64,000 nt of DNA, taken from an uncultured Lentisphaerales bacterium. GTDB lineage: Bacteria; Verrucomicrobiota; Kiritimatiellia; RFP12; UBA3636. Shown in pieces: positions 3,437 through 48,816 of this stretch. The notes beneath the pieces were generated by a model. The model made no database searches and was not told the origin of the DNA. It saw only the letters and a list, made by a program, of their open reading frames with translations. The stretch's first letter is position 1; each line of letters begins with the position of its first letter. A program made the position numbers and the translations under genes. Location of the stretch: contig CAYOPG010000001.1 of NCBI GenBank assembly GCA_964405775.1, positions 4,276 to 68,275 of the forward strand. The letters are read 5' to 3'.

Positions 3437-4993
3437 GTGGTGAATATGCAGTCGAACATGCAGGCGAAGGGAAAACACTTGAAATCAAAATCGGGCGCGA
3501 ACCCGCGTATTCTGATAGTGACGCCTGAAATCACATATCTGCCTCCTGGTATGGGCAACATGGCAAACAAGATGTCGGCCAAGGCCGGAGGAATGGCCGA
3601 TGTATCAGCCTCGCTTGTAAGCGCCCTTTTTGCGCAGGGAGCCGATGTGCACGTCGCGCTCCCGCACTATCGCAAAATGTTCCACGTAGATGTCGGGAAC
3701 CTGATTGACCACGAGTTGAAGGTTTATAAATCTGTTCTTCCAGATTCGCGAATACATTTGGCTCAGGATCGCATGTTCTATTACCGCGACAAGGTGTATA
3801 GCTCATACAGCGAAGACAACCCCAGACTTGCGCTTGCGTTCCAACGCGAGATAATAAACAATATAATCTCTACAGTCCGTCCAGATCTAATCCACTGTAA
3901 CGATTGGATGACTGGGCTCGTTCCGGCCGCCGCGCGTCGTCTAAGCATTCCCTGCCTCTTCACACTCCACAACATCCACACGCACGAAGTCACACTGGAA
4001 CAGGTAGAAAACATTGGCATCGACGCCGCGGAATTCTGGGAATACCTTTACTACATGCGGCCGCCATACAACTACGAAGAAACCCGCTCGAACAACCCTG
4101 TCGATATGCTCGCCAGCGGTATTTTCGCTTCGCATTACATAAATACGGTAAGCCCTGAGTTTCTTAAGGAAATCGTGAATGGAATGCATAACTTCGTACC
4201 CCCGCAGATCCGAAACGAGATAAGGGCTAAATACGGCGCAGGTTGCGCAAAGGGCATCCTCAACGCACCGGACGACAGCTACAGGCCATCCACTGACGAC
4301 GCGTTGCCTGTGAAATACGACGCTGACTCACACGCAGAAGGCAAGCGCGCCGCAAAAGATCAGCTGCAAGAGAGCCTTTCGCTGATAAAAAATCCAAATG
4401 CGCCTGTTTTCTTCTGGCCTTCGCGCCTCGATCCGGTGCAAAAGGGCTGTTCACTATTGTCGGACATACTCTATCACATGGTTTCGAAGTATTGGGAACA
4501 GGGCCTTCAGATTGTTTTTGTCGCCAACGGCTCATATCAAAAGGTGTTTCACGACATAGTGGTCTTTCACGGTTTTGAAGATCGTGTGGCAGTCTTCGAT
4601 TTCAACGAAGATCTTTCCCGCCTCGCATACGCCGCGTCAGACTTCGTTCTGGTTCCGTCGCTTTTTGAGCCATGCGGACTGACCCAGATGGTCGGGCAAA
4701 TATACGGCACGCTGCCAATAGTGCACGACACGGGCGGGTTGCACGATACCGTAGAGCATCTGGATATTGTTAATTCCAAAGGCAACGGATTCGTCTTCAA
4801 AGACTACGACGCCAACGCACTTTCATGGGGCGTTGACGAGGCTATGCGTTTCTATCTTTCTCCGGTAGAAGTCCGGACGGCTCTGGTCGGCAGAGTAATG
4901 CGGGAAAGCTCAAAACGCTTCACCCACGAAGAATGCGCAAAGGCGTACATAGACATGTACGAACACATGCTCAAGCGGCCGCTTGTCGTTTGA
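3437..4993 (+). CDS. glgA: glycogen synthase (ADP-glucose type, GT5)
   Basis: 518 aa with RILIVTPEITYLPPGMGNMANKMSAKAGGMADVSASL and the KTGGL-equivalent HDTGGLHDTV motif. GTG at 3437 or ATG at 3446 are possible starts. Confidence 0.9.
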   Translation: MVNMQSNMQAKGKHLKSKSGANPRILIVTPEITYLPPGMGNMANKMSAKAGGMADVSASLVSALFAQGADVHVALPHYRKMFHVDVGNLIDHELKVYKSVLPDSRIHLAQDRMFYYRDKVYSSYSEDNPRLALAFQREIINNIISTVRPDLIHCNDWMTGLVPAAARRLSIPCLFTLHNIHTHEVTLEQVENIGIDAAEFWEYLYYMRPPYNYEETRSNNPVDMLASGIFASHYINTVSPEFLKEIVNGMHNFVPPQIRNEIRAKYGAGCAKGILNAPDDSYRPSTDDALPVKYDADSHAEGKRAAKDQLQESLSLIKNPNAPVFFWPSRLDPVQKGCSLLSDILYHMVSKYWEQGLQIVFVANGSYQKVFHDIVVFHGFEDRVAVFDFNEDLSRLAYAASDFVLVPSLFEPCGLTQMVGQIYGTLPIVHDTGGLHDTVEHLDIVNSKGNGFVFKDYDANALSWGVDEAMRFYLSPVEVRTALVGRVMRESSKRFTHEECAKAYIDMYEHMLKRPLVV

Positions 4994-5441: not shown

Positions 5442-7700
5442 ATGCTCGGAAAACCACTCACGGTTGCCCTTGTGGGCAATCCAAATTCAGGTAAAACGAC
5501 TGTTTTCAACGCACTCACCGGCTCCCGCCAACACATAGGAAACTGGCCAGGAGTCACAGTCGAACGAAAAGAGGGCTTTTTCACAGTCGATGGACAGGAG
5601 GTGCGCGTTGTTGACTTGCCTGGAATTTATTCCCTGACAGCAGTGAGCGAGGACGAGCGCGTATCGGTTGAATACGTGCTGGGAGGCGAGGCGGATCTGT
5701 TCATCAACGTTATTGATGGCACGAATATAGAACGCAACCTGTACCTGACGCTTCTGCTTTCCGAGTTGCGCGTGCCGATGGTGCATGTGGTTACGATGAT
5801 GGATATCGTGAGGGATCGCGGTACTGTAATCGACTTCGATCATCTGGCGGAACATCTGGGGTGTCCTATTATAGGAATAAATGCGTCGGATAAAAGAGAC
5901 GTCAAGAAACTCTTGTCCATCATAGTCGATGCTGCTGAGCATTCGCATCTGCCAGTGGTCAATATCGAGTACCAGAACGAGGTCGAGGACGAGATAACGG
6001 CACTGCTTCCGCATTGCGAACCTGTTTGCGCAGTCTTCGGTGTGAATGCGCGCTGGGTTGCCCTCAAACTGCTGGAAGGTGATCCGAAAATATGCGACGA
6101 GGCGGAGAAAATTGGCGCAGTGAGTCGCACTACGCTTGATGCAGCGCGCGAGCGAATACGCAAAGTTCTTAATGAATTCAGCGATGAGGCTCTGGCAGAC
6201 GCCCGCTACGGTGTCATTCAGGGACTCTGCCACGACGTGGTTAAAAAAGGGGCTAAAAAGGAGAATTTCACTCAGCGTTTTGACAGGCTGGTTCTAAACC
6301 GCTGGCTTGGAATCCCCTTTTTCTTCTTGGTGATGCTGTGTGTCTTCTGGGTGACTCAGGTGGTAGGAGGCTCGTTCATAGATTTTTTCGGTCTCTTAGG
6401 CAAGACTCTGTTTGTCGATGGTCCTGCGCACCTGATGGCAAAGGTCGGCGTTCCCGAGTTCGTTATTGCGATTTTGGCTGGAGGTCTTGGAGCAGGATTG
6501 CAGACGATGGCGACATTCATCCCGCCGATTTTACTAATGTTCTTCTGCCTTTCGCTACTTGAGGATTCCGGTTACATGGCGCGGGCTGCATTTGTCATGG
6601 ATCGCTTTATGCGCTGGCTGGGGCTGCCAGGCAAATCTTTCGTGCCTCTTCTCGTTGGCTTTGGGTGCTCCGTCCCTGCGATTCTGGCGACGCGCGCGCT
6701 GGAGAGCAAACGCGATAGATTCCTGACGATATTTATGACGCCATTCATGTCGTGTGGCGCCAAGTTGCCTGTATACGTTGTTTTCGGAGCTGCGTTTTTC
6801 GCTGACAGTCCGGGGTTCCTCGTCTTTGCTCTCTATGCATCAGGCATAGTACTCGCCGTTTTAACCGGTCTCCTGCTGAAACACACAATTTTCGAGGGCA
6901 AACCGTCTCATTTTATAATGGAACTGCCTCCATACCATGTCCCGCGTATCAAGCATATCGCTTTGCACTCAATGGACCGAATGAAAGGATTTGTTGTCCG
7001 GGCAGGCAAGGTTATCGTGCCGATGGTACTGCTGCTTGGAGTCTTAAACACGGTCGGCAAAGACGGTTCAATCGGCAACGAAAACTCGGAGAATTCAGTT
7101 CTGACGTCAGTCGGAAAGGCGGTCACGCCCGTGTTCGGGCCCATGGGTGTCGAACCTGACAACTGGCCTGCATCCGTGGCCATATTTACTGGCCTTTTCG
7201 CCAAAGAAGCGGTAATTGGCACTCTTACGAGCATTTACGGGCAAAACAAAGGTGTCGACAACAATGATGTTGACGTTGACAAAACCTCTTACAGCCTTTG
7301 GGGTGGCGTCCGTGAAGCCTTCGCTTCGCTTCCGCTAATCGGTCACTTATTTGAAAGGGCTGAGACCGGACCGGCTGATGAAGTCGATGACACACTCTTC
7401 CAAGAAATGCGCAGACATTTTCCGAAAGGCCGCCATCAGGTCTTCTCCTATCTGCTCTTTATTTTGCTTTACATCCCTTGCCTTGCTGCCATGGGGTCTG
7501 CTTTGCAGGCTCTTGGCGGTCTGTATGGAACCGTGTTCGCGATTTATCTGACCGTGCTGGGCTGGTCCGTCTCAACGCTCTACTTCCAAATTTCTATTGG
7601 AGGCAGTTCGTTATGGATAGGCGTCGCCAGCGGACTGCTTGTCGCAATGGCCGCTGGCTTTGCCGTTATGGGGCGCTACAGGAAAATCCCGCTGGTTTAG
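5442..7700 (+). CDS. feoB: ferrous iron transporter B
   Basis: N-terminal G-domain (VALVGNPNSGKTTVFNALTG; DLPGIYSL) followed by a polytopic gate domain. Start at ATG 5442 with GGAGG RBS; the ORF-track start at 5337 is upstream. Confidence 0.92.
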   Translation: MLGKPLTVALVGNPNSGKTTVFNALTGSRQHIGNWPGVTVERKEGFFTVDGQEVRVVDLPGIYSLTAVSEDERVSVEYVLGGEADLFINVIDGTNIERNLYLTLLLSELRVPMVHVVTMMDIVRDRGTVIDFDHLAEHLGCPIIGINASDKRDVKKLLSIIVDAAEHSHLPVVNIEYQNEVEDEITALLPHCEPVCAVFGVNARWVALKLLEGDPKICDEAEKIGAVSRTTLDAARERIRKVLNEFSDEALADARYGVIQGLCHDVVKKGAKKENFTQRFDRLVLNRWLGIPFFFLVMLCVFWVTQVVGGSFIDFFGLLGKTLFVDGPAHLMAKVGVPEFVIAILAGGLGAGLQTMATFIPPILLMFFCLSLLEDSGYMARAAFVMDRFMRWLGLPGKSFVPLLVGFGCSVPAILATRALESKRDRFLTIFMTPFMSCGAKLPVYVVFGAAFFADSPGFLVFALYASGIVLAVLTGLLLKHTIFEGKPSHFIMELPPYHVPRIKHIALHSMDRMKGFVVRAGKVIVPMVLLLGVLNTVGKDGSIGNENSENSVLTSVGKAVTPVFGPMGVEPDNWPASVAIFTGLFAKEAVIGTLTSIYGQNKGVDNNDVDVDKTSYSLWGGVREAFASLPLIGHLFERAETGPADEVDDTLFQEMRRHFPKGRHQVFSYLLFILLYIPCLAAMGSALQALGGLYGTVFAIYLTVLGWSVSTLYFQISIGGSSLWIGVASGLLVAMAAGFAVMGRYRKIPLV

Positions 7701-8686
7701 CAGGCTACCCAGGTGCCGGATTTAGCCGACTTATATGCCGCTTCCATTATCTTGACGGCGTCGCGGGAGGCTTCGAGATCGGCTTTCCAATCCTCTTTGG
7801 AAATATTGCCTTTAACCACTTCGATCAGGCGTTCAATTTGTCTCGGCTTTTCTTCGATAGGCGCAACTGGTTCCGCAGGGAAACCTGGCCCGCCGATCTT
7901 AAGGCCATCGCTGTTCCAAACGCTTTTCTTTGAACCGATGATCTCCAGCCCGGCGTGTCCGCCAGTGAAAATCCAGCCTGCCTCGACCCTGCCGATTACT
8001 CCTGATTTGAACTGCAAAACAATCAGACCGTAGTCATCCACATCCGAGTAGATCCCCGACAAGTTGCGAATGTCTGCCCAGACTTTCTCAACCGCCCCGC
8101 CGAGGTGACGCAGGAACTGAACTGCATGTGTTCCCATGTCTAGCAATGCTCCGCCTCCGGAAAGTTCGGGGTTTGTGAACCATGCGAGTTCTGGGTTGTC
8201 GAACCATCTGCCATATGCAGCATGGTGAGCGTTCCGGAAATTGATATGCGTCACCTTGCCCAGCGCCTCGTCCGCAAGAAGCTTGCGAGCCGATCCTCCC
8301 ATGCCGGAAAAAGGCAAATGGTATCCGCATATGATGGGTGTGTTGTGCTTTTGCGCAAGGTTGAAGATCTCGTCTGCCTCTTCCGACTTGGTGGCAAGTG
8401 GCTTCTCGCACATAATCGGTTTGCCGGTGGGTATAAGTTTTTTTAGAAGAGGTAGATGACGAGTGTTCTCAGCGCAAACGACGAACGCATCAACTTCGGG
8501 GGCAGCCGCGGCCTTGTCTAGGTCTGGCTCGAACCTGCATTTGAAGTCTGCGGCATACTTGGCGCCACGATCGGCGTTATCGTCCCAAATGAAAACAGGT
8601 GCGCCGCCAGAAGTTGTTTTCGATATTATTTCGCAAAAATGGCGGCTGTGGATATGTGCTACTGATATAACGGCGATTTTTGGCAT
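7697..8686 (-). CDS. Gfo/Idh/MocA family NAD(P)-dependent oxidoreductase
   Basis: MPKIAVISVAHIHSRH... Rossmann N-terminus and the EKPLA motif (CEKPLATKSEEADEI) characteristic of Gfo/Idh/MocA. Start placed at the M after the non-conserved 15-aa leader. Its stop overlaps the feoB stop (convergent, 4 nt). Confidence 0.85.
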   Translation of the reverse strand: MPKIAVISVAHIHSRHFCEIISKTTSGGAPVFIWDDNADRGAKYAADFKCRFEPDLDKAAAAPEVDAFVVCAENTRHLPLLKKLIPTGKPIMCEKPLATKSEEADEIFNLAQKHNTPIICGYHLPFSGMGGSARKLLADEALGKVTHINFRNAHHAAYGRWFDNPELAWFTNPELSGGGALLDMGTHAVQFLRHLGGAVEKVWADIRNLSGIYSDVDDYGLIVLQFKSGVIGRVEAGWIFTGGHAGLEIIGSKKSVWNSDGLKIGGPGFPAEPVAPIEEKPRQIERLIEVVKGNISKEDWKADLEASRDAVKIMEAAYKSAKSGTWVAC

Positions 8687-8810
8687 TTCTGTTACCCCAG
8701 TGTTCGTATGTGAAGTTGCTAAACCGTCCACTGTTGACGCGCCCTGCGTAATCGTGAACTGTTCTTGCCCTCCATTCTAGTGCCGCTGCCTTGAATAAGT
8801 CAAGCTCTGG

Positions 8811-8875
8811 AATTAACAGGCGAATTAGCAGGTGAATTAACGGTGAATTAACACGAAAAAATCATTGATTTTTTG
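8811..8875. promoter_or_regulatory. phased direct-repeat array (GAATTAAC x4 at 11-12 bp spacing) plus perfect 19-bp palindrome in the divergent promoter region
   Basis: GAATTAAC at 8811, GAATTAGC at 8823, GAATTAAC at 8835 and 8846. AAAAAATCAtTGATTTTTT at 8857-8875. Lies in the 322-bp intergenic region between the Gfo/Idh/MocA gene (minus) and the polyamine operon (plus). Confidence 0.5.
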
Positions 8876-9008
8876 GCGCGGTAAATGCATCATGTTGCCC
8901 TGTTTTCCCCGCGTTGCCGCCTGACTCCCGAACGGGGGCGGGCAAGTGGCATACCGATCTCCATTCACGATAGCCCATATAAACGGCTGAAACGGCAGGT
9001 GACCCATA

Positions 9009-10463
9009 TTGAATAAGCTCTCGCAGCAGAATACCCCCATCCACAAAGCATTGGAAGAACAGAGAATAAACCGCTTGGCGCACTTTGACGTGCCAGGTCA
9101 CAAAGGCGGCCGAGGGAACAAGGAGCTGACGGAATTTCTGGGTGAGACTGCGATGAGTCTGGACGTGAACTCGATGAAGCCGCTCGACAATCTCGGCCAT
9201 CCTGTTTCCGTCATTAAAAACGCGCAGAAACTGGCGGCGGAGGCTTTCGGAGCCGACGAGTCGTTTTTTATGGTGAACGGCGCCACTGCCGGCGTGCAGG
9301 CTATGATCATGTCAACTTGCAACACTGGTGACAAGGTGATCATGCCACGCAACGTCCACCGCAGCGCCATCAACGCGCTCGTAGTGTGTGGCGCTCTTCC
9401 TGTTTACGTTAATCCCGGAACGAACAAGGAGCTTGGAATCCCGCTTGGTATGCCGACGGCGGCCGTAAAAAAAGCGATCGAGGCTAACCCCGACGCAAAA
9501 GCCATTCTGGTTAACAACCCGACTTATTACGGCATCTGCTCGAATATGCGCGAGATCGTGAAGTTGGCTCACGACAACAACATGCTGGTTCTTGCCGACG
9601 AGGCTCACGGCACGCATTTCTATTTCCACGACAAGCTGCCGATCTCAGCGATGGAGGCTGGCGCGGACATGGCCGCTGTGAGCATGCATAAGACGGGCGG
9701 TTCGCTGACTCAAAGCTCAATACTGTTGGCTCGCCACACGGTCAACGCCGACTATGTGCGCCAGATTATAAACCTCACGCAAACAACTTCCGCTTCGTAT
9801 CTGCTGCTTTCGTCGTTAGACATTTCGCGCAAAAACCTCTGTTTGAATGGTTACGCAATGTATTCAAAGACGATTGATTTCGCCGACTACGCCCGCGATG
9901 AGATCAACAGCCTGGGCGGGTACTACGCATTCGGCACAGAATTGGTCGATGGTGACGCGGTGTATGGTTTCGACACCACAAAGCTATCGGTACACACCCG
10001 TAATATCGGCCTCGCAGGTATCGAAGTGTACGACCTTCTGCGCGATGACTACGGAATCCAAATCGAGTTCGGCGACATAGGCAACGTTCTGGCTATCATT
10101 TCGGCTGGCGACCGCACAATGGAGATTGAAAGGCTAATATCTGCGTTTGCAGAAATCAAGCGCCTACACGAAAAGGACAAGGCCGGTCTCTTTGATCACG
10201 AATACATTGACCCGCAGATCGCGATGGCACCTAAGGACGCGTTCTACTCGAAGAAACGCTCAATTCCCATCCGTAAAAGTGTCGGCCAGATAAGCGGTGA
10301 GTTCGTTATGAGCTATCCTCCCGGGATTCCTATTCTTGCGCCAGGTGAGCGTATCACGACGGACATCATGGAGCACATTCTCTATGCAAAAGAGAAAGGA
10401 TGCTTTATGACTGGCACGCAGGACATGAATGTTGAAAACATTAACGTCGTAGTCGGCGCATAG
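9009..10463 (+). CDS. speA: Orn/Lys/Arg decarboxylase family (fold-type I PLP), arginine decarboxylase-like
   Basis: 484 aa. HFDVPGHKGG N-terminal motif, PLP-lysine region SMHKTGGSLTQSS. TTG start with AGGTGA RBS. First gene of the polyamine operon. Confidence 0.8.
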   Translation: MNKLSQQNTPIHKALEEQRINRLAHFDVPGHKGGRGNKELTEFLGETAMSLDVNSMKPLDNLGHPVSVIKNAQKLAAEAFGADESFFMVNGATAGVQAMIMSTCNTGDKVIMPRNVHRSAINALVVCGALPVYVNPGTNKELGIPLGMPTAAVKKAIEANPDAKAILVNNPTYYGICSNMREIVKLAHDNNMLVLADEAHGTHFYFHDKLPISAMEAGADMAAVSMHKTGGSLTQSSILLARHTVNADYVRQIINLTQTTSASYLLLSSLDISRKNLCLNGYAMYSKTIDFADYARDEINSLGGYYAFGTELVDGDAVYGFDTTKLSVHTRNIGLAGIEVYDLLRDDYGIQIEFGDIGNVLAIISAGDRTMEIERLISAFAEIKRLHEKDKAGLFDHEYIDPQIAMAPKDAFYSKKRSIPIRKSVGQISGEFVMSYPPGIPILAPGERITTDIMEHILYAKEKGCFMTGTQDMNVENINVVVGA

Positions 10464-10507
10464 GCTCCTGCGACTTCTGAAACATCTTTTGATTGGAGGC
10501 TGATAAA

Positions 10508-11365
10508 ATGGAATTGTGGTACACGGACCAGCACACCAAGGACGTGCGTTTTTCTATGAAGTCTAAGCGTCAGCTCGCGAGCCATCAGAGCGAGATTCAG
10601 CGAATAGACATCCTTGAAACTTACGAATATGGGCGCATACTCGTGCTCGATGGGGATCTCATGATCACCGAGAAGGACGAATTTATCTACCACGAGATGA
10701 TCACGCATGCCCCCATGGCCGTGCACCCCAACGTGAAGAACGTCCTCGTAATCGGCGCCGGGGATGGCGGTACCATACGCGAACTCACCAAGTATTCCAC
10801 GATAGAAAGCATCGACATGGTCGAAGTCGATAAGGACGTTGTAACCCTCTGCATGGTGCACATGCCATTCACGGCCTGCAAACTGCAGGATCCCCGCGTT
10901 CACATGTATTTTGAGGAAGGCCTCCGCTTTGTGCGCACAAAGAAGAACGAGTACGACTTGATAATCGTCGATTGCGCCGACCCTTACGGTCCGTCAGAAG
11001 GACTTTTCACCCGCGAATTCTATGGTACCTGCTTCAGGGCGCTACATGATGACGGCATCCTAATAAACCAGCACGAAAGTCCTTTTTACAACTCACATTC
11101 GATGACCGTACAGAAGGCTCACAAACAAATAGCGACGACCTTCCCGCTGAGCATGGTTTATCAGTGTCATATACCGTCATATCCCTCTGGACACTGGCTT
11201 TTCGGTTTCGCATCGAAGAAATACCATCCTCTGGAGGACCTGATGGTCAAAGAGTGGAATTCGTTGGGAATCCGCACAAGATACTACAACACAGACTTGC
11301 ACGAAGGCAGCTTCTACCTGCCCACATACGTCAAGGAACTGCTGGGGTACTCAAGCAATGGATAG
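10508..11365 (+). CDS. speE: polyamine aminopropyltransferase (spermidine synthase family)
   Basis: MELWYTD...RILVLDGDLMITEKDEFIYHEMITH...VLVIGAGDGGTIRE...IIVDCADPYGPSEGLFT: canonical SpeE motifs. ATG at 10508 with GGAGG RBS; the ORF-track TTG start at 10493 is less likely. Confidence 0.9.
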   Translation: MELWYTDQHTKDVRFSMKSKRQLASHQSEIQRIDILETYEYGRILVLDGDLMITEKDEFIYHEMITHAPMAVHPNVKNVLVIGAGDGGTIRELTKYSTIESIDMVEVDKDVVTLCMVHMPFTACKLQDPRVHMYFEEGLRFVRTKKNEYDLIIVDCADPYGPSEGLFTREFYGTCFRALHDDGILINQHESPFYNSHSMTVQKAHKQIATTFPLSMVYQCHIPSYPSGHWLFGFASKKYHPLEDLMVKEWNSLGIRTRYYNTDLHEGSFYLPTYVKELLGYSSNG

Positions 11366-12221
11366 AAACGTCCATACATTCATTGGCTGCGACAAGGAGT
11401 ATGCTGAAAGCGACATCGTAATTTTCGGAGCTCCATTCGACAGCACTACATCGTATCGCCCGGGCACTCGTTTCGCAAGCGCGGCGATGCGTTCCGAGAG
11501 CTTCAGCATAGAGACTTACAGCCCTTATCTAGACCGTGATCTGATCGCTGATGCACGCATCTTCGATGGAGGCGACCTTGAGCTCCCGTTCGGTTCGCCA
11601 GAGGCAGCGCTCGACATGATCGAAGAGTTCACTGAACAAATTTTAGCAGACGGTAAATTCCCTGTGATGATTGGTGGCGAGCACCTTGTGACGCTGGCGA
11701 CCATACGCGCTGTTGCTAAACGCCATCCTGATCTTCATATCATACACTTCGATGCCCACGCGGATTTGCGCGATGACTATCTCGGAGTGAAGCTCTCTCA
11801 TGCGTGCGTGATGAGACGCTGCCACGAGATATTAGGCGACGCGCGCATCTTCCAGTTTGGCATTCGCAGCGGCGACCGCTCGGAATTCGCCTGGGCCGCC
11901 GAAGGCCATGTGACGATGCGCAAATTCGATTTGAAAACACTGCCGGAAGTGGCGAAAAAGCTCCAAAGCGTCCCCGTGTACGTAACTGTCGATCTTGACG
12001 TGCTTGATCCATCACAATTCCCCGGAACAGGTACGCCGGAAGCGGGTGGTGTCATGTTTACTGAGTTACGCGAAGCGCTGGAAATCGCGCTTGGGCTTAA
12101 CGTGGTCGCCATGGATATGAACGAACTCTCGCCGGCGCTCGACCATTCTGGCGCGTCAACGGCACTTGCCTGTAAACTAATGCGCGAAGCGCTTCTTATG
12201 ATCGGAGGAAAACACAAATGA
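11358..12221 (+). CDS. speB: agmatinase/ureohydrolase family (SpeB-like; possibly aminopropylagmatine ureohydrolase)
   Basis: 287 aa, arginase-fold motifs (GGEHLVT, DAHADL, VTVDLDVLDP). Overlaps speE by 8 nt and the next gene by 4 nt. Confidence 0.88.
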   Translation: MDRNVHTFIGCDKEYAESDIVIFGAPFDSTTSYRPGTRFASAAMRSESFSIETYSPYLDRDLIADARIFDGGDLELPFGSPEAALDMIEEFTEQILADGKFPVMIGGEHLVTLATIRAVAKRHPDLHIIHFDAHADLRDDYLGVKLSHACVMRRCHEILGDARIFQFGIRSGDRSEFAWAAEGHVTMRKFDLKTLPEVAKKLQSVPVYVTVDLDVLDPSQFPGTGTPEAGGVMFTELREALEIALGLNVVAMDMNELSPALDHSGASTALACKLMREALLMIGGKHK

Positions 12222-13420
12222 GCAAAAAAACATTGATAATCGGCGCCGGCGGGGTTGCCAGCGTGGTCGTGCATAAGTGTTGCCAAAACCACGAAGTGTT
12301 CCCTGATATTTGCATCGCCAGCCGGACGAAGTCCAAGTGTGACGCACTCAAGAAAAAGCTGGAAGGCGGCAAAACGAAGATCTCGACGGCGCGTGTCGAT
12401 GCCGACAACGTCAAAGAGCTCGTGGCTCTCATCAAAGACTACAAGCCGGATCTTGTAATGAACATCGCGTTGCCTTATCAGGATCTCACGATAATGGATG
12501 CGTGCCTCGCGACCGGCGTTGATTATCTCGACACCGCGAACTACGAACCCAAAGACACCGCCAAGTTCGAATACAAGTGGCAGTGGGATTACCGCGACCG
12601 CTTCAAGAAAGCCGGAATAATGGCGCTGCTCGGCTGCGGTTTTGACCCGGGCGTCACTGGCGTATACTCCGCTCACGCGCAGAAACACCATTTCGACGAA
12701 ATAGATACTATCGATATCCTGGACTGCAATGGCGGTGACCACGGGTACCCTTTCGCAACGAACTTCAACCCCGAAATAAACATCCGCGAAGTATCCGCGA
12801 AAGGCAGCTACTGGGAGAATGGCCGTTGGGTACACACAGAACCGATGGAAATCAAGCGAGTGTACGACTTCGATGGCGTGGGCAAAAAGGACATGTATCT
12901 GCTCCACCACGAAGAAATCGAATCCCTTGCTATTAATATCAAAGGCGTCAAACGCATCCGCTTCTTCATGACATTCGGGCAGAGTTACCTGACCCACCTT
13001 AAGTGCCTCGTGAACGTGGGTATGACCTCGATTGAGCCGATTGACTTCAAAGGAAACAAAATAGTGCCTCTGGAGTTCCTGACAGCCGTGTTGCCTGATC
13101 CAGCGTCGCTCGGTCCTCGCACTAAGGGCAAGACCAACATCGGCTGCATATACACAGGCTCGAAAAACGGAAAGCCGGTGAACTACTACGTATACAACAT
13201 CTGCGACCATCAGGAAAGCTACAAAGAAGTCGGTTCTCAAGCCATTTCGTACACCACGGGTGTCCCCGCGATGATCGGCGGTATGATGATGCTGACAGGC
13301 AAATGGAAGAAGCCCGGCGTTTTCAACGTCGAGGAATTCGACCCAGATCCTTTCATGGACGCCCTCAACAAATGGGGACTCCCTTGGCAGGATACCTTTG
13401 AACCGGTGCTCGTCGATTGA
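12218..13420 (+). CDS. saccharopine dehydrogenase family, carboxy(nor)spermidine dehydrogenase-like
   Basis: 400 aa. N-terminal LIIGAGGVASVVVHKCCQNHEVFPDICIASRTKSKCD Rossmann motif. Length and architecture typical of CANSDH. Last gene of the operon. Confidence 0.78.
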   Translation: MSKKTLIIGAGGVASVVVHKCCQNHEVFPDICIASRTKSKCDALKKKLEGGKTKISTARVDADNVKELVALIKDYKPDLVMNIALPYQDLTIMDACLATGVDYLDTANYEPKDTAKFEYKWQWDYRDRFKKAGIMALLGCGFDPGVTGVYSAHAQKHHFDEIDTIDILDCNGGDHGYPFATNFNPEINIREVSAKGSYWENGRWVHTEPMEIKRVYDFDGVGKKDMYLLHHEEIESLAINIKGVKRIRFFMTFGQSYLTHLKCLVNVGMTSIEPIDFKGNKIVPLEFLTAVLPDPASLGPRTKGKTNIGCIYTGSKNGKPVNYYVYNICDHQESYKEVGSQAISYTTGVPAMIGGMMMLTGKWKKPGVFNVEEFDPDPFMDALNKWGLPWQDTFEPVLVD

Positions 13421-13441
13421 TCTTTCGACCGAGAATCAATC

Positions 13442-14308
13442 ATGGGCAACAACATAACAAACATTGTAGGGGGCGACAGTGCTGGCCTCAGTTTGGCGCA
13501 GTCCGGTCTGTCTGGCGAGGTGTTTGTTTGGCATGATGTTCTCTATGACGGTGTGCGCAAGCCTGGATGGCCAGATGAGGAGACCATCGAGGCTAGGGCG
13601 GCATTTCTTGAGGATCACACCGCTGGTGGAATGACCCGCGAATTCCTGCGGAAGTCACTGCACCGCGAATATTCCAAGCTTGAGGCCATAGCAGGCACCC
13701 ACATAATTTTGTGGTTTGATGCCTGTCTTTTCGATCAGGCGATGCTAGCGCACATACTTGCTTGTCTTTCACATCTTCGCGCTAGGCACGTCGAACTTAT
13801 TTGCGTAGATTCGTTTCCAGGAGTGGAGCCATTCCACGGTCTTGGTCAGCTTAGCCCGGAACAATTCGTGTCGCTCGAGGGGCGTCAACTCCCGGTGAGC
13901 GAACAGGAATTTGAGTTTGCCATTCAAGTCGACAAAGCATTTGCCACCAGCGATTTTCAGGCTTTGGAAGAGATATCCCGTATGTCAGATGCTCCGCTGC
14001 CATTTGTCCCGGCAGCGGCTGCACGATGGCTGCAGGAGCGTCCTGATCCAGAAACTGGGCTAGGACTTCTGGAAAGCCTCGTCATGTCAGCGCTGCGTAA
14101 CGGATGTAATACGCCTCTGGAAATCTTCAAGTTCGCCGCATCAGCAGACACGCCCCCGCAGTTTTGGGGAGACTCCACAATGTGGGCAAAGATAAACGGC
14201 CTTGCCATGCGCAATCCTCCCCTTTTAAAAATTGAAGGTCCGACTGACAAACTACCACAGAGGGAAAGCAATCTTTCCCTTGAGAGTTTTTTGATAAAAA
14301 AAGTTTAA
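13442..14308 (+). CDS. hypothetical protein, DUF1835-like N-terminus
   Basis: 288 aa. N-terminal IVGGDSAGLSL..SGLSGEVFVWHDVLYDG resembles the DUF1835 signature recalled from memory (HI.nGDSaag.L...GE...W.D.L..GP). Confidence 0.5.
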   Translation: MGNNITNIVGGDSAGLSLAQSGLSGEVFVWHDVLYDGVRKPGWPDEETIEARAAFLEDHTAGGMTREFLRKSLHREYSKLEAIAGTHIILWFDACLFDQAMLAHILACLSHLRARHVELICVDSFPGVEPFHGLGQLSPEQFVSLEGRQLPVSEQEFEFAIQVDKAFATSDFQALEEISRMSDAPLPFVPAAAARWLQERPDPETGLGLLESLVMSALRNGCNTPLEIFKFAASADTPPQFWGDSTMWAKINGLAMRNPPLLKIEGPTDKLPQRESNLSLESFLIKKV

Positions 14309-41202: not shown

Positions 41203-41544
41203 ATGGGAATGAACCGGATTGACGGTCGAAAGGACTGGGTGGACATCCGCAAAGACGACGCCCATGTGGCGCGCGAACGCGAAAAGGCGCGCGAACTTAG
41301 AAAGAGCCAATGGTGGAAAGCCCGTCTGGCAGAAGGCAAATGCCACTATTGCGGAGGTTCGTTCAGGCCGGAAGAGCTGACTATGGATCATGTGATCCCT
41401 GTAGCGCGCGGCGGGAACTCTGTGAAAAGCAACGTTGTGCCTGCATGCGAAAAGTGCAACAAAACAAAAAAACACTTGACGCCAGTGGAGCAGATTCTAA
41501 ACGAAATGGAAGCATCCGGCGAACTATCACCGGCGAATGAATAA
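41203..41544 (+). CDS. small HNH endonuclease
   Basis: CHYCGGSF...DHVIPVARGGNSVKSNVVPACEKCNKTK: HNH motif with a Cys4 zinc finger. Confidence 0.85.
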   Translation: MGMNRIDGRKDWVDIRKDDAHVAREREKARELRKSQWWKARLAEGKCHYCGGSFRPEELTMDHVIPVARGGNSVKSNVVPACEKCNKTKKHLTPVEQILNEMEASGELSPANE

Positions 41545-41561: not shown

Positions 41562-43157
41562 ATGAGAGTTATTCAATGCGATTATCTGGTAGTCGGGAGC
41601 GGGATGGCGGGACTCTCCGCAGCGCGCAATTTATCGAAGCATGGCGAAGTGCTCGTGGTGACGAAAAAAGAGAAGTGGGAGTCCAACACCAACTACGCGC
41701 AAGGCGGCATAGCCTGCGTCATGCTGGAAGACGATTCCTTCGAGATGCACATCGCCGACACTCTCGATGCCGGTGCCGGGTTATGCGACGAGGACGTCGT
41801 TCGCGAGATCGTGAGCGCCGCGCCGGCGCGCATTCAGGAACTGCGCGACATTGGCATGAAGTTCACCGAACGTACGGACACCCTAAATGGAGAACTTGAC
41901 CTCGGGCGCGAAGGAGGCCACTCGAAAAGGCGCATCCTGCACGCTGGCGACATCACGGGCAGGCACATGGAGGAAGTGCTGCTAAAGAACGTCGCCAAAA
42001 ACAAGAAAATCACCATGATGGAGCACACCATGGCGATAGACCTTGTGACGCGCGAAATCAAGGGCAAAACCTCCTGTGTCGGTTGCTATATGCTTGACAC
42101 CAAATCAGGCGAGATTTTCGCAGTCCGCGCGCCATACACAATACTTGCTGCCGGCGGTGCCGGCAAGGTTTACCTCTACACAACAAATCCGGACGTCGCC
42201 ACAGCCGGTGGCATCTCAATAGCATGGCGAGCAGGGGCTGAAATCCGCAACATGGAGTTCGTACAGTTCCATCCCACGTGCCTATACCACCCCGAGGCGA
42301 AAAACTTTCTCATCAGCGAAGCAGTTCGCGGCGAAGGCGCACAGCTTGTCAATGCCGACGGCAGTCCGTTCATGTGGAGATACGATAAGCGCGGCCCCCT
42401 CGCCCCTCGCGACATTGTCGCCAGAGCGATTGACCACGAAATGAAGACGCACGGCATCGAGTGCGTATATCTCGACATTCGCCACAAGGGCAAAGAATTT
42501 CTTCTCAAGCGCTTCCCCAACATATACGAGAAATGCAAATCTTTCGGCATCGACATGGCCACGGATCTTATTCCCGTAGTCCCTGCGGCGCACTACTGCT
42601 GCGGAGGGGTCAAGACAACAGTCGATGGACTCACCAACATCCCCGGTCTGCTGGCTATCGGGGAAACGGCAAGCACCGGACTCCACGGAGCCAACCGCCT
42701 TGCCAGCAACTCGCTTCTTGAAGCGGCGGTCTGCGCCCACAACGCCGCGGAATGGATCGCTGCGCATCCACGCAAGGCCGATATATCCGAGATAGAGATC
42801 CCCGCATGGGTATACGGCGACGCAGTACCGAGCGATGAAAAAGTCGTCGTCTCGCACAACTGGGAAGAAGTGCGGACCTGCATGTGGGACTATGTCGGCA
42901 TCGTTCGCACGGATAAGCGTCTTGACCGAGCCTTGACGCGAATAGCCAACATTCGCCGCGAAATTCATCAATATTACTTCGACTATCTGGTAACCCTTGA
43001 AACACTTGAACTTCGCAATATTGCCGACGCCGCATACCTTATTGTAAAGTCCGCACAGCACCGCAAGGAAAGCCGAGGGCTGCACTACACGCTCGACCAC
43101 CCCAATCTGCTGTCCTACGTGGAAGACACCGTAATACAAAGAGACGCGGCTGTTTGA
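41562..43157 (+). CDS. nadB: L-aspartate oxidase
   Basis: DYLVVGSGMAGLSAA FAD motif. Flavoprotein motif HYCCGGV. 531 aa. Confidence 0.92.
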   Translation: MRVIQCDYLVVGSGMAGLSAARNLSKHGEVLVVTKKEKWESNTNYAQGGIACVMLEDDSFEMHIADTLDAGAGLCDEDVVREIVSAAPARIQELRDIGMKFTERTDTLNGELDLGREGGHSKRRILHAGDITGRHMEEVLLKNVAKNKKITMMEHTMAIDLVTREIKGKTSCVGCYMLDTKSGEIFAVRAPYTILAAGGAGKVYLYTTNPDVATAGGISIAWRAGAEIRNMEFVQFHPTCLYHPEAKNFLISEAVRGEGAQLVNADGSPFMWRYDKRGPLAPRDIVARAIDHEMKTHGIECVYLDIRHKGKEFLLKRFPNIYEKCKSFGIDMATDLIPVVPAAHYCCGGVKTTVDGLTNIPGLLAIGETASTGLHGANRLASNSLLEAAVCAHNAAEWIAAHPRKADISEIEIPAWVYGDAVPSDEKVVVSHNWEEVRTCMWDYVGIVRTDKRLDRALTRIANIRREIHQYYFDYLVTLETLELRNIADAAYLIVKSAQHRKESRGLHYTLDHPNLLSYVEDTVIQRDAAV

Positions 43158-43603: not shown

Positions 43604-44737
43604 GTGTTGCCAAAAACCAGCCACCTTGCAACGCTTGCAACAGCGCTGAACGAGGCTGCCGACAAGCTTGATGAACGAATGAAATCAATGGAGGAGACGA
43701 AGGCGTTTTCCGACACTGTACTTTCAAACATCCCGAGCGGCATCATAACTCTGGACGACGAACTCAATGTCACAATGTACAACGAGGCGGCGGCATACAT
43801 GATGGGATTCACCTCCCCAATACCAACTCCAAACCTAAAGACAGCAAGGATTCAAGATCTCGAACTCATAAAAATCGTCTACGACACCATGAAGACCAAG
43901 TCCCCAGTACGCGGAGAATTCAAGCAAGGTGCCACGGGCAAGAAAGTCATGGACGTTTTCTCGACCACGATGTCTGACTCTAGTGGCAATACCTCGGGGG
44001 TACTCCTGCTCATATCGGACTTGACTACTGTGCGAAGGCTTGAAACTATAAGGCAGGATTTCGTGGGCAACGTGGCGCACGAGTTGCGTACGCCCGTAAC
44101 TTCTATAAGCGGCTTCGCGGAGTTGCTTGGCCGCACAACCCACGACGAACACGGGAAAATCACCCGTTACTCAGCCATAATTCTGCGCCAGGCAAAACAC
44201 ATGGAGACTATAATAAACGACCTCCTATTGCTGGCCAGCCTGGACGACTCCGCCGGTACTGCCATAGAGCAGAAAACCGTAGTCTCAATCAGACAGACGA
44301 TAGATAATGCTGTGGAGCTTTGCGGCGAGCGCGTAGGAATGGAACAAGTAAAGCTCACAGTGCACTGTCCGGACACTCTTGAAGCGACGATACATCAGGG
44401 ACTAATGGAACAGGCAATTGTGAACCTCATTGAAAATGCCGTCAAATACGGTGTAACCCAGAGCAGCGACAAAATCGAAATCTCTGCTGCGAAAGCAGAC
44501 GATGGCACTGTCGAGATCAATGTTACGGATTATGGGAACGGCATACCTGCTGAGCAACAGGAACGCATATTTGAACGATTCTACCGCATCGACAAAGGTC
44601 GTACGCGTGAGAACGGCGGCACGGGATTGGGTCTCTCCATTGTTAAACACATAATGCGTCTACACGCAGGCACGGTTTTTGTGGTCAGCAAACGCGAAGT
44701 CTCAACAACATTCACGCTCAAGTTTCCCAAGGGATGA
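43604..44737 (+). CDS. PhoR-like sensor histidine kinase (PAS-HisKA-HATPase) lacking a transmembrane region
   Basis: PAS (SNIPSGIITLDDELNVTMYNEAA). H-box HELRTPVTSISGFAELL. N/G boxes (NLIENAVKYG..., GGTGLGLSIVKH). GTG start; only ~30 aa precede the PAS domain. Confidence 0.85.
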   Translation: MLPKTSHLATLATALNEAADKLDERMKSMEETKAFSDTVLSNIPSGIITLDDELNVTMYNEAAAYMMGFTSPIPTPNLKTARIQDLELIKIVYDTMKTKSPVRGEFKQGATGKKVMDVFSTTMSDSSGNTSGVLLLISDLTTVRRLETIRQDFVGNVAHELRTPVTSISGFAELLGRTTHDEHGKITRYSAIILRQAKHMETIINDLLLLASLDDSAGTAIEQKTVVSIRQTIDNAVELCGERVGMEQVKLTVHCPDTLEATIHQGLMEQAIVNLIENAVKYGVTQSSDKIEISAAKADDGTVEINVTDYGNGIPAEQQERIFERFYRIDKGRTRENGGTGLGLSIVKHIMRLHAGTVFVVSKREVSTTFTLKFPKG

Positions 44738-44815: not shown

Positions 44816-44890
44816 CTAGCGTCCGTATTGTTTAATATGCGGCAACCCAGCAAAAGGCGGGCAACAACAAATCAACAAAGGGCAAACAAT

Positions 44891-45820
44891 ATGAACAAAT
44901 CAATCAACAAGACAATACTCACAGCTGCAGCCGCTGCTAGCATAATGCTAAGCGCTGGAGCGGCAGAACAGAAACTCACTCTCGACGGCTCCACCACCGT
45001 GGGACCGATCGCCAAGGCTTTCGCGGAATACATGATGGGGCAAGACAAGGAAGTCAATATCACGGTCAGCGAATCAGGTAGCGGCAACGGCGCAAAAGCG
45101 CTTCTAAACGGAACATGCGACATTGCGACTCTCTCCCGCGACCTGAAGAGTTCAGAAAAAGAAGCCATGGAAGCCAAGGGCGTAACGCCCGTTAAGCACG
45201 TGTGCGCACTCGACGCTTTGCCCGTCATCGTCCACCAGTCCAATAAAGTTAAAGGCCTCACTATAGAGCAGATCCGCGATATATACACTGGCAAGATCAC
45301 AAACTGGAAGGAAGTCGGCGGATTCGACAAGAAAATCGTCGTCATCAGCCGTGACACGAACAGTGGCACGTACGAGACCTTCTCGGAAATCGTCGTTGGG
45401 AAAGACAACAAGGTTGTTTCCAGCGCGGAATACACGGGAAGCAACGGTGCCGTGCGCCAGCGCGTACAGACAACCGAAGGCGCAATTGGATACGTCGGCC
45501 TAGGTTTCGCTGACAGCACAATAAAGGTACTCGAAGTCAATGGCGTCAAGCCCTCCGTCGAGACGGTGTTCAGCAAGAAGTACCCCATCAGCCGCGAACT
45601 GTACATGTTCACTAACGGCGAACCAAAAGAAGGTTCACTGGCGGCTCGCTACCTCGCCCTCATCACCTCAGAAGAAGGCTCGGAAATGGTTGAGGAAATT
45701 GGGTATATTTCCATGACTGCCGGCGCCAAGAAGGCGGCAACCGAAGCGACCTGCCCCAAATGCGGCACAAAGTTCCCTGTTGACTCCAAAGAGACCGCAG
45801 AGGTCAAAGAAACCAAATAA
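44891..45820 (+). CDS. pstS: phosphate ABC transporter substrate-binding protein PstS family (orphan)
   Basis: Signal peptide MNKSINKTILTAAAAASIMLSAGAA. LTLDGSTTVGPIA...SESGSGNGAKAL...ATLSRDL...VISRDTNSGTYETF. ATG at 44891. Confidence 0.88.
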   Translation: MNKSINKTILTAAAAASIMLSAGAAEQKLTLDGSTTVGPIAKAFAEYMMGQDKEVNITVSESGSGNGAKALLNGTCDIATLSRDLKSSEKEAMEAKGVTPVKHVCALDALPVIVHQSNKVKGLTIEQIRDIYTGKITNWKEVGGFDKKIVVISRDTNSGTYETFSEIVVGKDNKVVSSAEYTGSNGAVRQRVQTTEGAIGYVGLGFADSTIKVLEVNGVKPSVETVFSKKYPISRELYMFTNGEPKEGSLAARYLALITSEEGSEMVEEIGYISMTAGAKKAATEATCPKCGTKFPVDSKETAEVKETK

Positions 45821-47409: not shown

Positions 47410-48816
47410 TCACTTGCCGTTGGCGTCTATCCCGTATTTTTTAATCAGCCTTTGCAGGTAGGCGCGTTCAATGTCAGCCTCGCGAGCAGACTTCGAAATG
47501 TTGCCGTCGTTGCGTTTCAAGAGCTTCATTATGTACTTGCGCTCAAACTCATCGACCAGCTCCGCCTTCTCCTCCTTGAAAGGACGGCTCCCTACGGCGG
47601 GTTCATCACTTAGCACACCGGATTGGGGTTGGGATTGCCGCTGCGAAGTCCGCCCTATCCCGCCGGAGTAAAGCACTGACGTTAGGTCTATCGGCCGCGA
47701 GGGGCTGTAGAACGCTCGGTCGATCAAGTTGCGAAGTTCCCGCACGTTGCCAGGCCATTCGTGGCGGCGAAGCGACTCCATAGAAACGTCGAATTCGGCG
47801 ATTTCTTCCAGCGCGTCCGCTCCGTGCAGATCCGCAACAAACTTCCTCGCCAAGAGCGGAATATCTTCAGTGCGGTTGCGTAAAGGCGGAAGTTCGATGT
47901 TGACGACGGCAAGCCTGTAAAAAAGATCCTCGCGGAAACGCCCTTCCGAAACTTCCAAATCCATGTCTCGGTTTGTGGCGCAAATTATTCGTACATCGAT
48001 TTTCTTGACGGTGTTTGTGCCGACGCGGCGGATTTCACGTTTCTCCAGCACGCGCAGAAGTTTGGGCTGGAGCTCTGGAGCAAGATCCCCGACTTCATCT
48101 AGGAACACGGTTCCCCCATTCGCGTGCTCGAAAGCACCGGGGCGATCCGACGCCGCGCCCGTAAAAGCGCCTTTTACATGGCCGAAGAGTTCGCTTTCAA
48201 TTAGGTCTTTTGCCAGCGCGGCGCAATCGATGACAACAAATGGCTTGTCTGCTCTCGCACTGTGGCGGTGTATCTCCTCCGCCATTATTTCTTTGCCGGT
48301 CCCCGTCTCTCCGGTTAACATAATAGACGCGTCAGTAGGCGAATAAGTCTCTGCGATGTAGAAAATGCGGCGCATGGCGAGACTGCTGCCGACTACGGCA
48401 CCAAAGCTGTCCGACGGGCTCAACTGCAGCTCACGAGCCTCCTGCAACGGAGAAAACACAAGATTCGTGCTGCCGAGCTGCAATTCAGCGCCTGGATTAA
48501 GATAGGCGTTGGAAATACGAACCCCGTTTACTGCCGTGCCGTTCGTGCTGTTCAGATCCACAATCGTGTAGCCATGCTCATCGGCCCTTATTTCACAGTG
48601 CCTACGCGAAACTGATGGATCTTCAAGCTGCAGATCAACGTTTTTCCCCGTTCCTATTGAAAACACGTCCTTATCAACTGGGAACTTTCTACCACCGAGG
48701 GGACCAGTCGTCACCAGCAACTCTGTTTTTCTGACGCGCACCGGCGCGCCTTTACCTTGTGATAGCACCACAAGCGTCTGCGCCAACGATGATCGGTTTG
48801 AAGAAGAAGAAGACAT
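47410..48816 (-). CDS. sigma-54-dependent transcriptional activator with N-terminal FHA domain (FHA-AAA+-HTH)
   Basis: FHA domain (SIGTGKNVDLQLEDPSVSRRHCEI...GYTIVDLNSTNGTAVNG). AAA+ sigma-54 interaction domain (GETGTGKEIMAEEIH, GAFTGA, ESELFGH). C-terminal Fis-type HTH. Confidence 0.88.
   Translation of the reverse strand: MSSSSSNRSSLAQTLVVLSQGKGAPVRVRKTELLVTTGPLGGRKFPVDKDVFSIGTGKNVDLQLEDPSVSRRHCEIRADEHGYTIVDLNSTNGTAVNGVRISNAYLNPGAELQLGSTNLVFSPLQEARELQLSPSDSFGAVVGSSLAMRRIFYIAETYSPTDASIMLTGETGTGKEIMAEEIHRHSARADKPFVVIDCAALAKDLIESELFGHVKGAFTGAASDRPGAFEHANGGTVFLDEVGDLAPELQPKLLRVLEKREIRRVGTNTVKKIDVRIICATNRDMDLEVSEGRFREDLFYRLAVVNIELPPLRNRTEDIPLLARKFVADLHGADALEEIAEFDVSMESLRRHEWPGNVRELRNLIDRAFYSPSRPIDLTSVLYSGGIGRTSQRQSQPQSGVLSDEPAVGSRPFKEEKAELVDEFERKYIMKLLKRNDGNISKSAREADIERAYLQRLIKKYGIDANGK

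Follow-up and report, generated by a model that had tools for sequence, protein, structure and literature searches.

Tandem AT-rich repeats and a palindrome between the divergent promoters of a polyamine operon in an uncultured Lentisphaerae lineage: a putative promoter-upstream module

Four near-identical tandem 8-mers and a perfect 19-bp palindrome are located between a Gfo/Idh/MocA oxidoreductase gene and a polyamine operon, in a stretch of DNA of 64,000 nucleotides (referred to as the window) from an uncultured Lentisphaerae lineage. Judged from the comparison with related loci, the array and the palindrome most likely represent an ordinary promoter-upstream AT-block module. We give even chances to the proposal that the two make up the upstream half of the promoter of the speA operon, an extended UP-like element derived from tandem duplication. 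As had been proposed from a reading of the letters only (the sequence-only reading), the divergent promoters share the upstream region that holds array and palindrome, and one of these promoters drives the polyamine operon. The region contains the following features.

7697-8686, minus strand: Gfo/Idh/MocA oxidoreductase gene, left flank of the intergenic region
8774-8803, minus strand: Gfo promoter of the sigma70 type, with TTGACT (8803-8798), an 18-nt spacer and TAGAAT (8779-8774)
8810-8817, plus strand: array unit 1, GAATTAAC
8822-8829, plus strand: array unit 2, GAATTAGC
8834-8841, plus strand: array unit 3, GAATTAAC
8845-8852, plus strand: array unit 4, GAATTAAC
8855-8864, plus strand: A tract GAAAAAATCA, centred at about -41, left arm of the palindrome, at the position of an UP proximal subsite
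8865-8873, plus strand: putative -35 hexamer TTGATT with T run, TTGATTTTT, right arm of the palindrome
8888-8893, plus strand: putative weak -10 hexamer CATCAT, assigned by its position 17 nt after TTGATT
8900-9008, plus strand: conserved 5' leader of speA of about 110 nt, alignable in nine lineages
8997-9002, plus strand: Shine-Dalgarno sequence AGGTGA of speA
9009-10463, plus strand: gene for a SpeA-like Orn/Lys/Arg decarboxylase (OKR_DC_1, Pfam) with a TTG start, first gene of the operon

Pfam domains gave the operon order speA-speE-speB-(saccharopine-dehydrogenase-like)-DUF1835, in which speE is the gene for spermidine synthase and speB that for agmatinase. The locus was found in several metagenome assemblies, and independent assemblies carry the same speA gene call. 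The saccharopine-dehydrogenase-like gene of the operon (9009-14308) is of the carboxyspermidine-dehydrogenase type. Neither speD nor a gene for carboxyspermidine decarboxylase adjoins the operon; in the relative L024, an Orn_DAP_Arg_deC gene follows the dehydrogenase gene.

The four copies of GAATTA[A/G]C, at spacings of 12, 12 and 11, were present as had been reported, with all reported coordinates 1 nt too high. TRF returned the array (8810-8853; period 12, 3.8 copies, score 67) as the top array of the window. GAATTARC was counted 8 times in the 64 kb, against 3.96 expected, and 4 of these 8 lie within 43 nt on one strand. No second same-strand pair at 10-13 nt spacing occurs in the 64-kb window, even when the degenerate GAANNARC is included, which identifies the array as a true tandem duplication. 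Likewise, neither the rest of the window nor 465 kb of fetched loci contained tandem pairs of GAAWWARC, GAANNARC or TTARCR; this recurrence scan covered about 2% of the genome. The tandem array is far beyond chance. Its four 8-mer cores are identical at 31 of 32 positions, and the excess of differences in the spacers (2/12, versus 1/32 in the cores) is not significant.

The one-turn helical phasing that had been described for the copies holds as an approximation only, the mean period being 11.7 bp and not about 10.5. By arithmetic, the outermost copies are then rotated by about 120 degrees relative to each other on the helix. A crude wedge model of curvature did not set the array apart; its end-to-end ratio was at the 23rd percentile. 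The degenerate fifth copy that had been assigned to the array (GAATAAGT, 8793-8800) had to be dropped as an array member, because it lies outside the array and within the Gfo promoter block CTTGACTTATTCAAGGCnGCGGCACTAGAAT; a better fifth unit is GAAAAAAT (8855-8862), which keeps the array phasing. A literature search with the 8-mer returned primers and unrelated matches only.

Several known site types were compared with the array and rejected. For ARG boxes, TGAAT half-sites exist as direct repeats and the ATTCA partner is missing. The candidate IHF site WATCAANNNNTTR has 2 mismatches and is not kept by relatives, CodY and ComK boxes matched poorly and belong to the wrong phylum, and the replication gene or origin context of iterons is absent.

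The upstream regions of speA were compared in nine lineages, the window species included. One of the sisters, L010, from genome JALHHX01, is a Lentisphaerae MAG that was found by a contig scan with the Gfo protein, which also gave the phylum; it is syntenic and the nearest named genome. Identities to the window were as follows.

Window species: reference
Sisters L007 and L010: SpeA 98%, Gfo 86%
L027, L061, L031, L030, L008 and L062: SpeA 84-87%

Other Gfo orthologues in the contig scan (57-74% identity) have no adjoining speA, and their upstream DNA is unrelated. A metagenome scan with the start-region pattern ATTGAATAAGCTNNCNCAGCA yielded 29 loci, 2 of which were speA loci, both duplicates of lineages already collected.

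Within the window species the array is identical, with four copies, in five assemblies (the window, L001, L002, L004 and L066). Over 400 nt these assemblies differ by just two SNPs, both in L004 (1497 and 1504, corresponding to 8801 and 8808 of the window) and next to the left end of the array; one makes the -35 element of Gfo weaker (TTGACT to TTAACT). Conservation in relatives, one half of the refutation test that the sequence-only reading had set beforehand, was not found: the sister species have no GAATTAAC units. For the other half, frequency in the genome, the small sample scanned showed no recurrence. L007, L010 and L034 (SpeA 98%, Gfo 86%) have units of the GGTTGAAAAAGCA or TTAAAAAAGC type instead, with indels in the core. 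At the array position L007 has GGTTGAAAAAGCA twice and then TTAAAAAAGCG, and L010 has GGTTAAAAAAGCA, GGTGAAAAAAGCA and TTAAAAAAGCG, and the sister species show phased A5-6 tracts at this place. Another tandem pair, GATTTTTTTGG twice, lies upstream of the same promoter in L030. With the four-fold degenerate sites as a yardstick (50-65% identical between window and L007), the sections of the region compared to L007 as follows.

Core promoter of speA, 8865-8893: 28/29 identical
Leader: 87% identical
Gfo core promoter: 84% identical
Gfo 5' UTR: 69% identical

The array region could not be aligned to L007 and is the least conserved section of the intergenic region. Everything from TTGATTTTT to the start codon is strongly conserved, in contrast to the array region upstream, and the boundary of conservation between window and L007 falls in the middle of the palindrome.

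Further upstream, L007 and L010 contain about 135 extra nt that are absent from the window species. This segment (L007 3790-3950, L010 3730-3880) is flanked by the Gfo promoter and the A-tract repeats and carries a 13-nt direct repeat, GCGTGGCAAGAGC, twice at a distance of 70 nt; in L010 the palindrome GCGTGGC-aaga-GCCACGC is also present. The segment is possibly a small insertion or a site for a regulator. The exact 10-mer GTGAATTAAC of the window repeat unit occurs once in the extra segment of L010, in the opposite orientation (about 3797-3806), where L007 has GGGATATAAC. About 0.04 such matches are expected by chance, and the 10-mer may hint at where the window array came from.

In the alignment of the nine lineages, an invariant TTGATTTTT is followed by ten variable positions and an invariant TGCA. 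Six distant lineages have TTGATT-18-TGC-AATAMT, i.e. a -35 and an extended -10 element, and the window species and its sisters have TTGATT-17-CATCAT, with a weaker -10. The distance from TTGATT to the start codon was 142-150 nt in the seven lineages in which it was measured. The invariance of TTGATTTTT and its fixed distance to the start codon lead us to read the right arm of the palindrome as the -35 hexamer with a T run, with a putative speA transcription start at about position 8900. For Lentisphaerae, promoter annotation would gain a conserved TTGATT-17/18-(TGC)AATAMT with an A/T tract at -42. The promoter spacer (8871-8887) is identical to L007 at 16 of 17 positions and to L010 at 17 of 17. 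A plain sigma70 spacer need not be conserved, so that an operator or an alternative sigma element such as sigma54 possibly overlaps the core promoter at this spacer.

The perfect 19-bp palindrome, AAAAAATCA-T-TGATTTTTT, was confirmed at 8856-8874. Perfect palindromes with arms of at least 9 and a loop of 0-5 number 1 in the window and 1.8 +/- 1.3 in Markov shuffles, and the palindrome alone is not beyond chance. The proposal that it forms a separate dimeric operator was not supported by the comparison, in which only the right arm is invariant through the nine lineages. The sequences directly upstream of TTGATT differ:

Window: AAAAAATCA
L007 and L010: AAAAAAGCG
L008: AAAAAAGGCA
L027: AAAATTATGCA
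L031: AAATTTCTGT

Both the sequence and the register of the left arm thus vary, and only the window species has a perfect dyad. In six distant lineages 1-6 of 8 positions are symmetrical with the right arm (counted by hand); on this alignment, dyad symmetry is not conserved across lineages. The palindrome resembles the operators of dimeric repressors in that a perfect 9+1+9 dyad overlaps the putative -35 element. Unlike in such operators, only one arm is conserved, the symmetry is mainly that of an A run facing a T run, and the frequency is at chance level. The perfect dyad would be a by-product of an A run beside TTGA and a T run, and not an operator.

In the explanation that we propose, TTGATT would be the -35 element of a sigma70-type promoter (TTGATT, 17 nt, CATCAT) from which transcription starts near 8900. 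Together with the A6 tract, the four AATTA(A) blocks would be sites with a narrow minor groove, about one turn apart, and would serve as docking sites for the C-terminal domains of the RNA polymerase alpha subunits. Such an extended UP-like element may also aid the back-to-back Gfo promoter, and the upstream blocks would compensate for the weak -10 element of this clade. In the lineage of the window species, an 11-12 bp unit would have been duplicated in tandem to give the blocks.

With TTGATT placed at -35, the A/T blocks of the window are centred at -41, -51.5, -62.5, -75 and -86.5. The centres of the A5-6 tracts in the sisters are at -43, -52 and -65 (L007) or -66.5 (L010), and in all nine lineages TTGATT is directly preceded by an A/T tract of differing sequence that has its centre at -41 to -43. 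Given the putative promoter, the stretch from about -38 to -59 just before the -35 element therefore contains A/T tracts, as in UP elements. In E. coli, the alpha C-terminal domain docks in the narrowed minor grooves of A/T tracts, with no base-specific contacts; its sites have their centres near -43 and -53, with transient docking at -63, -73, -83 and -93 (PMC3326320). Recognition by the shape of the tract or the minor groove, as in UP elements, would fit the turnover of sequence between species (PMC3326320). The position of the tract is kept while its sequence turns over, as a shape-recognised UP-like element would predict; a base-specific operator predicts no such turnover. Compared with the E. 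coli sites, the AT blocks, with their period of 11-12 bp, drift off the 10.5-bp face, and the distal two fit -73 and -83 within 2-3.5 bp. These UP rules are those of E. coli, extrapolated to Lentisphaerae.

The UP consensus of E. coli consists of a proximal AAAAAARNR at -46 to -38 and a distal AWWWWWTTTTT. AAAAAATCA matches the proximal consensus at 7 of 8 specified positions, yet lies 2 bp nearer to -35; in the strict proximal register, CGAAAAAAT matches at 5 of 8. The position of the distal subsite is occupied by GTGAATTAACA, which is A/T-rich and does not follow the E. coli consensus. Like UP elements of the E. coli rrnB P1 type, the region has its A/T tracts just upstream of -35, centred at -41, -51.5 and -62.5. 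Unlike them, its tracts are four near-identical tandem units of 11-12 bp, AATTAA blocks replace the long A/T runs of the consensus, and the array, common to this and a divergent promoter, reaches about -90. Phased A-tracts are a feature of the plc promoter of C. perfringens, a comparison that is not used as evidence here. If the proposal holds, the locus would illustrate the way in which an A run, the TTGA of a -35 element and a T run can mimic a perfect operator, and would be an example of tandem duplication building phased AT blocks upstream of a promoter.

The 31/32 identity of the cores also fits selection for a specific binder or a very recent duplication, and other explanations were weighed as well. 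The cooperative binding of a regulator, which the sequence-only reading had proposed, gained no support: the units are absent in the sisters, and tandem recurrence, degenerate patterns included, was seen neither in the 64 kb nor in the 465 kb. In a narrower form, the repeats would be species-specific direct-repeat sites for a regulator of the OmpR/PhoB type, or for a nucleoid-associated protein, that co-regulates Gfo and speA; we consider this conceivable but doubtful. The cores lie 11-12 bp apart at -46 to -92 of both promoters, spacers vary more than cores (a difference that is not significant, as given above), copies 3 and 4 of the window and the L010 unit GGTGAAAAAAGC can be read as sharing a core GGTGAA-WW-AA, and the conserved promoter spacer hints at an extra factor. 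In favour of this reading we also count the embedded TTAACA, TTAGCA, TTAACG and TTAACA, which may resemble the PhoP boxes of B. subtilis with their 11-bp period. Arrays of the Pho-box type consist of direct repeats with a period of about 11 bp, often in four units, and the window array is like those of the OmpR/PhoB family in having four direct repeats with a short core at about one-turn spacing upstream of a promoter. In contrast to them, its period is 12/12/11, it neither abuts nor replaces the -35 element, it is not kept in the sister species, and it comes without another copy or a cognate regulator nearby; Pfam searches of the neighbouring genes showed no transcription-factor gene within about 10 kb of the array. 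The spacing of 12/12/11 also exceeds the 10-11 bp that winged-helix dimers typically show, and the sister units differ by substitutions as well as by indels in the core (GAAAAAGC, GAAAAAAGC and TTAAAAAAGC). Neutral slippage or local duplication in a weakly constrained spacer, whose function would be no more than to space the two promoters, seems rather unlikely to us. It would explain that the array region is the least conserved, that in the sister it contains other repeats and about 135 additional nt, and that several lineages show different short tandem repeats at the same spot. Against it, the window species and its sisters alike have A/T tracts at -42, -52 and -63 despite the turnover, and the array is identical in five assemblies while the two SNPs of L004 fall just outside. 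Neutral slippage and a weak UP-like function are hard to separate.

Two further explanations involve sigma54, and the features on which they draw are the following.

8874-8889, plus strand: sigma54-like -24/-12 element TGGCGC-GGTAA-ATGCA (TGGCGCGGTAAATGCA), with 2 mismatches, of low confidence
47410-48816, minus strand: gene for an enhancer-binding protein, FHA-Sigma54_activat-HTH_8

It is highly unlikely, in our view, that the speA promoter of this clade is sigma54-dependent (TGGCGC-N5-ATGCA, 8874-8889), with the array as the enhancer (UAS) of an activator ATPase; in the sisters, the GCGTGGCAAGAGC repeats would then be the enhancer. The region shares with sigma54 promoters a -24/-12-like spacer and an activator ATPase encoded in the genome (at 47410-48816), and the presence of this gene in the window implies that this Lentisphaerae lineage uses sigma54; rpoN was not seen in the 64-kb window. 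GG and GC are at the correct -24/-12 spacing, 9 of 11 positions agree with the consensus TGGCAC-N5-TTGCW, the stretch is conserved at 16/17 (L007) to 17/17 (L010) positions where sigma70 spacers normally drift, and the clade is without the good extended -10 of the other six lineages. Unlike in sigma54 promoters, the match is at chance level, with 33 two-mismatch matches observed in the window against 35.4 expected, and L007 has a third mismatch (TGGAGC). Moreover, TTGATTTTT, as a -35-like element, stays invariant though sigma54 would not need it, and the array consists of direct repeats, not dyads, and lies only about 20-65 bp upstream of -24, whereas usual sigma54 enhancers are much farther from the -24 element. 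A rewired speA promoter, in which the spacer would hold a sigma54 element or an operator, the GAATTAAC array would be a recent close platform for an enhancer or activator, and the leader would sequester the Shine-Dalgarno sequence, appears highly improbable; if true, polyamine synthesis would be controlled at two levels by undescribed elements. A phase-variable contingency repeat, whose copy number would switch promoter strength, is suggested by the short tandem repeat between two promoters and is extremely improbable: assemblies from different samples have exactly four copies with an identical sequence in all five cases, and the repeat is thus not of variable length. Near the activator gene, the window also encodes a HisKA/HATPase kinase (43604-44737) and a PstS-like PBP_like_2 protein (44828-45820).

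The Gfo promoter scored 10/12 in a consensus scan. Its block of -35, spacer and -10 (CTTGACTTATTCAAGGCnGCGGCACTAGAAT) is identical at 30 of 31 positions in the array-less L007 and L010, and its flanks diverge. The 9-mer TTGAATAAG occurs in the -35 region of Gfo (8791-8799) and again at the start codon of speA (9009-9017), and is kept by L010. About 0.3 repeats like it are expected per 400-nt region, and the pair is therefore probably due to chance.

Downstream of the core promoter, the leader RNA of speA can be folded into the following elements.

8915-8918 with 8948-8951 and an inner stem, plus strand: predicted hairpin P1, with compensatory changes
8972-8975 with 8985-8988, plus strand: predicted hairpin P3, with compensatory changes
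UCAC (8965-8968) and GCC with CGGC (8993-8996) and the GUGA of AGGTGA (8997-9002), plus strand: anti-SD helix, a potential pairing

In P1 and P3 together, 7 cells were changed on both sides; of 500 shuffles, 6 gave at least as many. The anti-SD helix, 96% pairable, is invariant and shows no covariation. Rfam contained no relevant match for 8500-9200 (E<=10) and no gathering-level match in seven related loci. A covariance model of the leader matched speA leaders only; the window and 17 other loci contained no additional copy. The leader is possibly a riboregulator that responds to polyamines, arginine or agmatine, and it is a better candidate than the repeats for the regulatory element of the operon. 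Lying just outside the segment that the sequence-only reading had singled out, it is a more useful lead than the array, a finding that matters little as it stands.

Some assemblies call a minus-strand ORF of 56 aa (8837-9007) across the leader. Its frame is broken by indels of 4, 2 and 1 nt relative to L007, and the call is therefore almost certainly spurious. A distant speA locus, L064, has long heptamer-like arrays of CTGGGAG/CTCCCAG in inverted blocks upstream (about 1260-1400), which are unrelated to the window repeats. Elsewhere in the window, at 41466-41510, an A7 run abuts TTGACG, followed by 16 nt and TAAACG, upstream of a gene for a FAD-binding protein at 41562. This site is intergenic and promoter-like, and is the second in the window at which an A tract directly precedes a -35-like hexamer.
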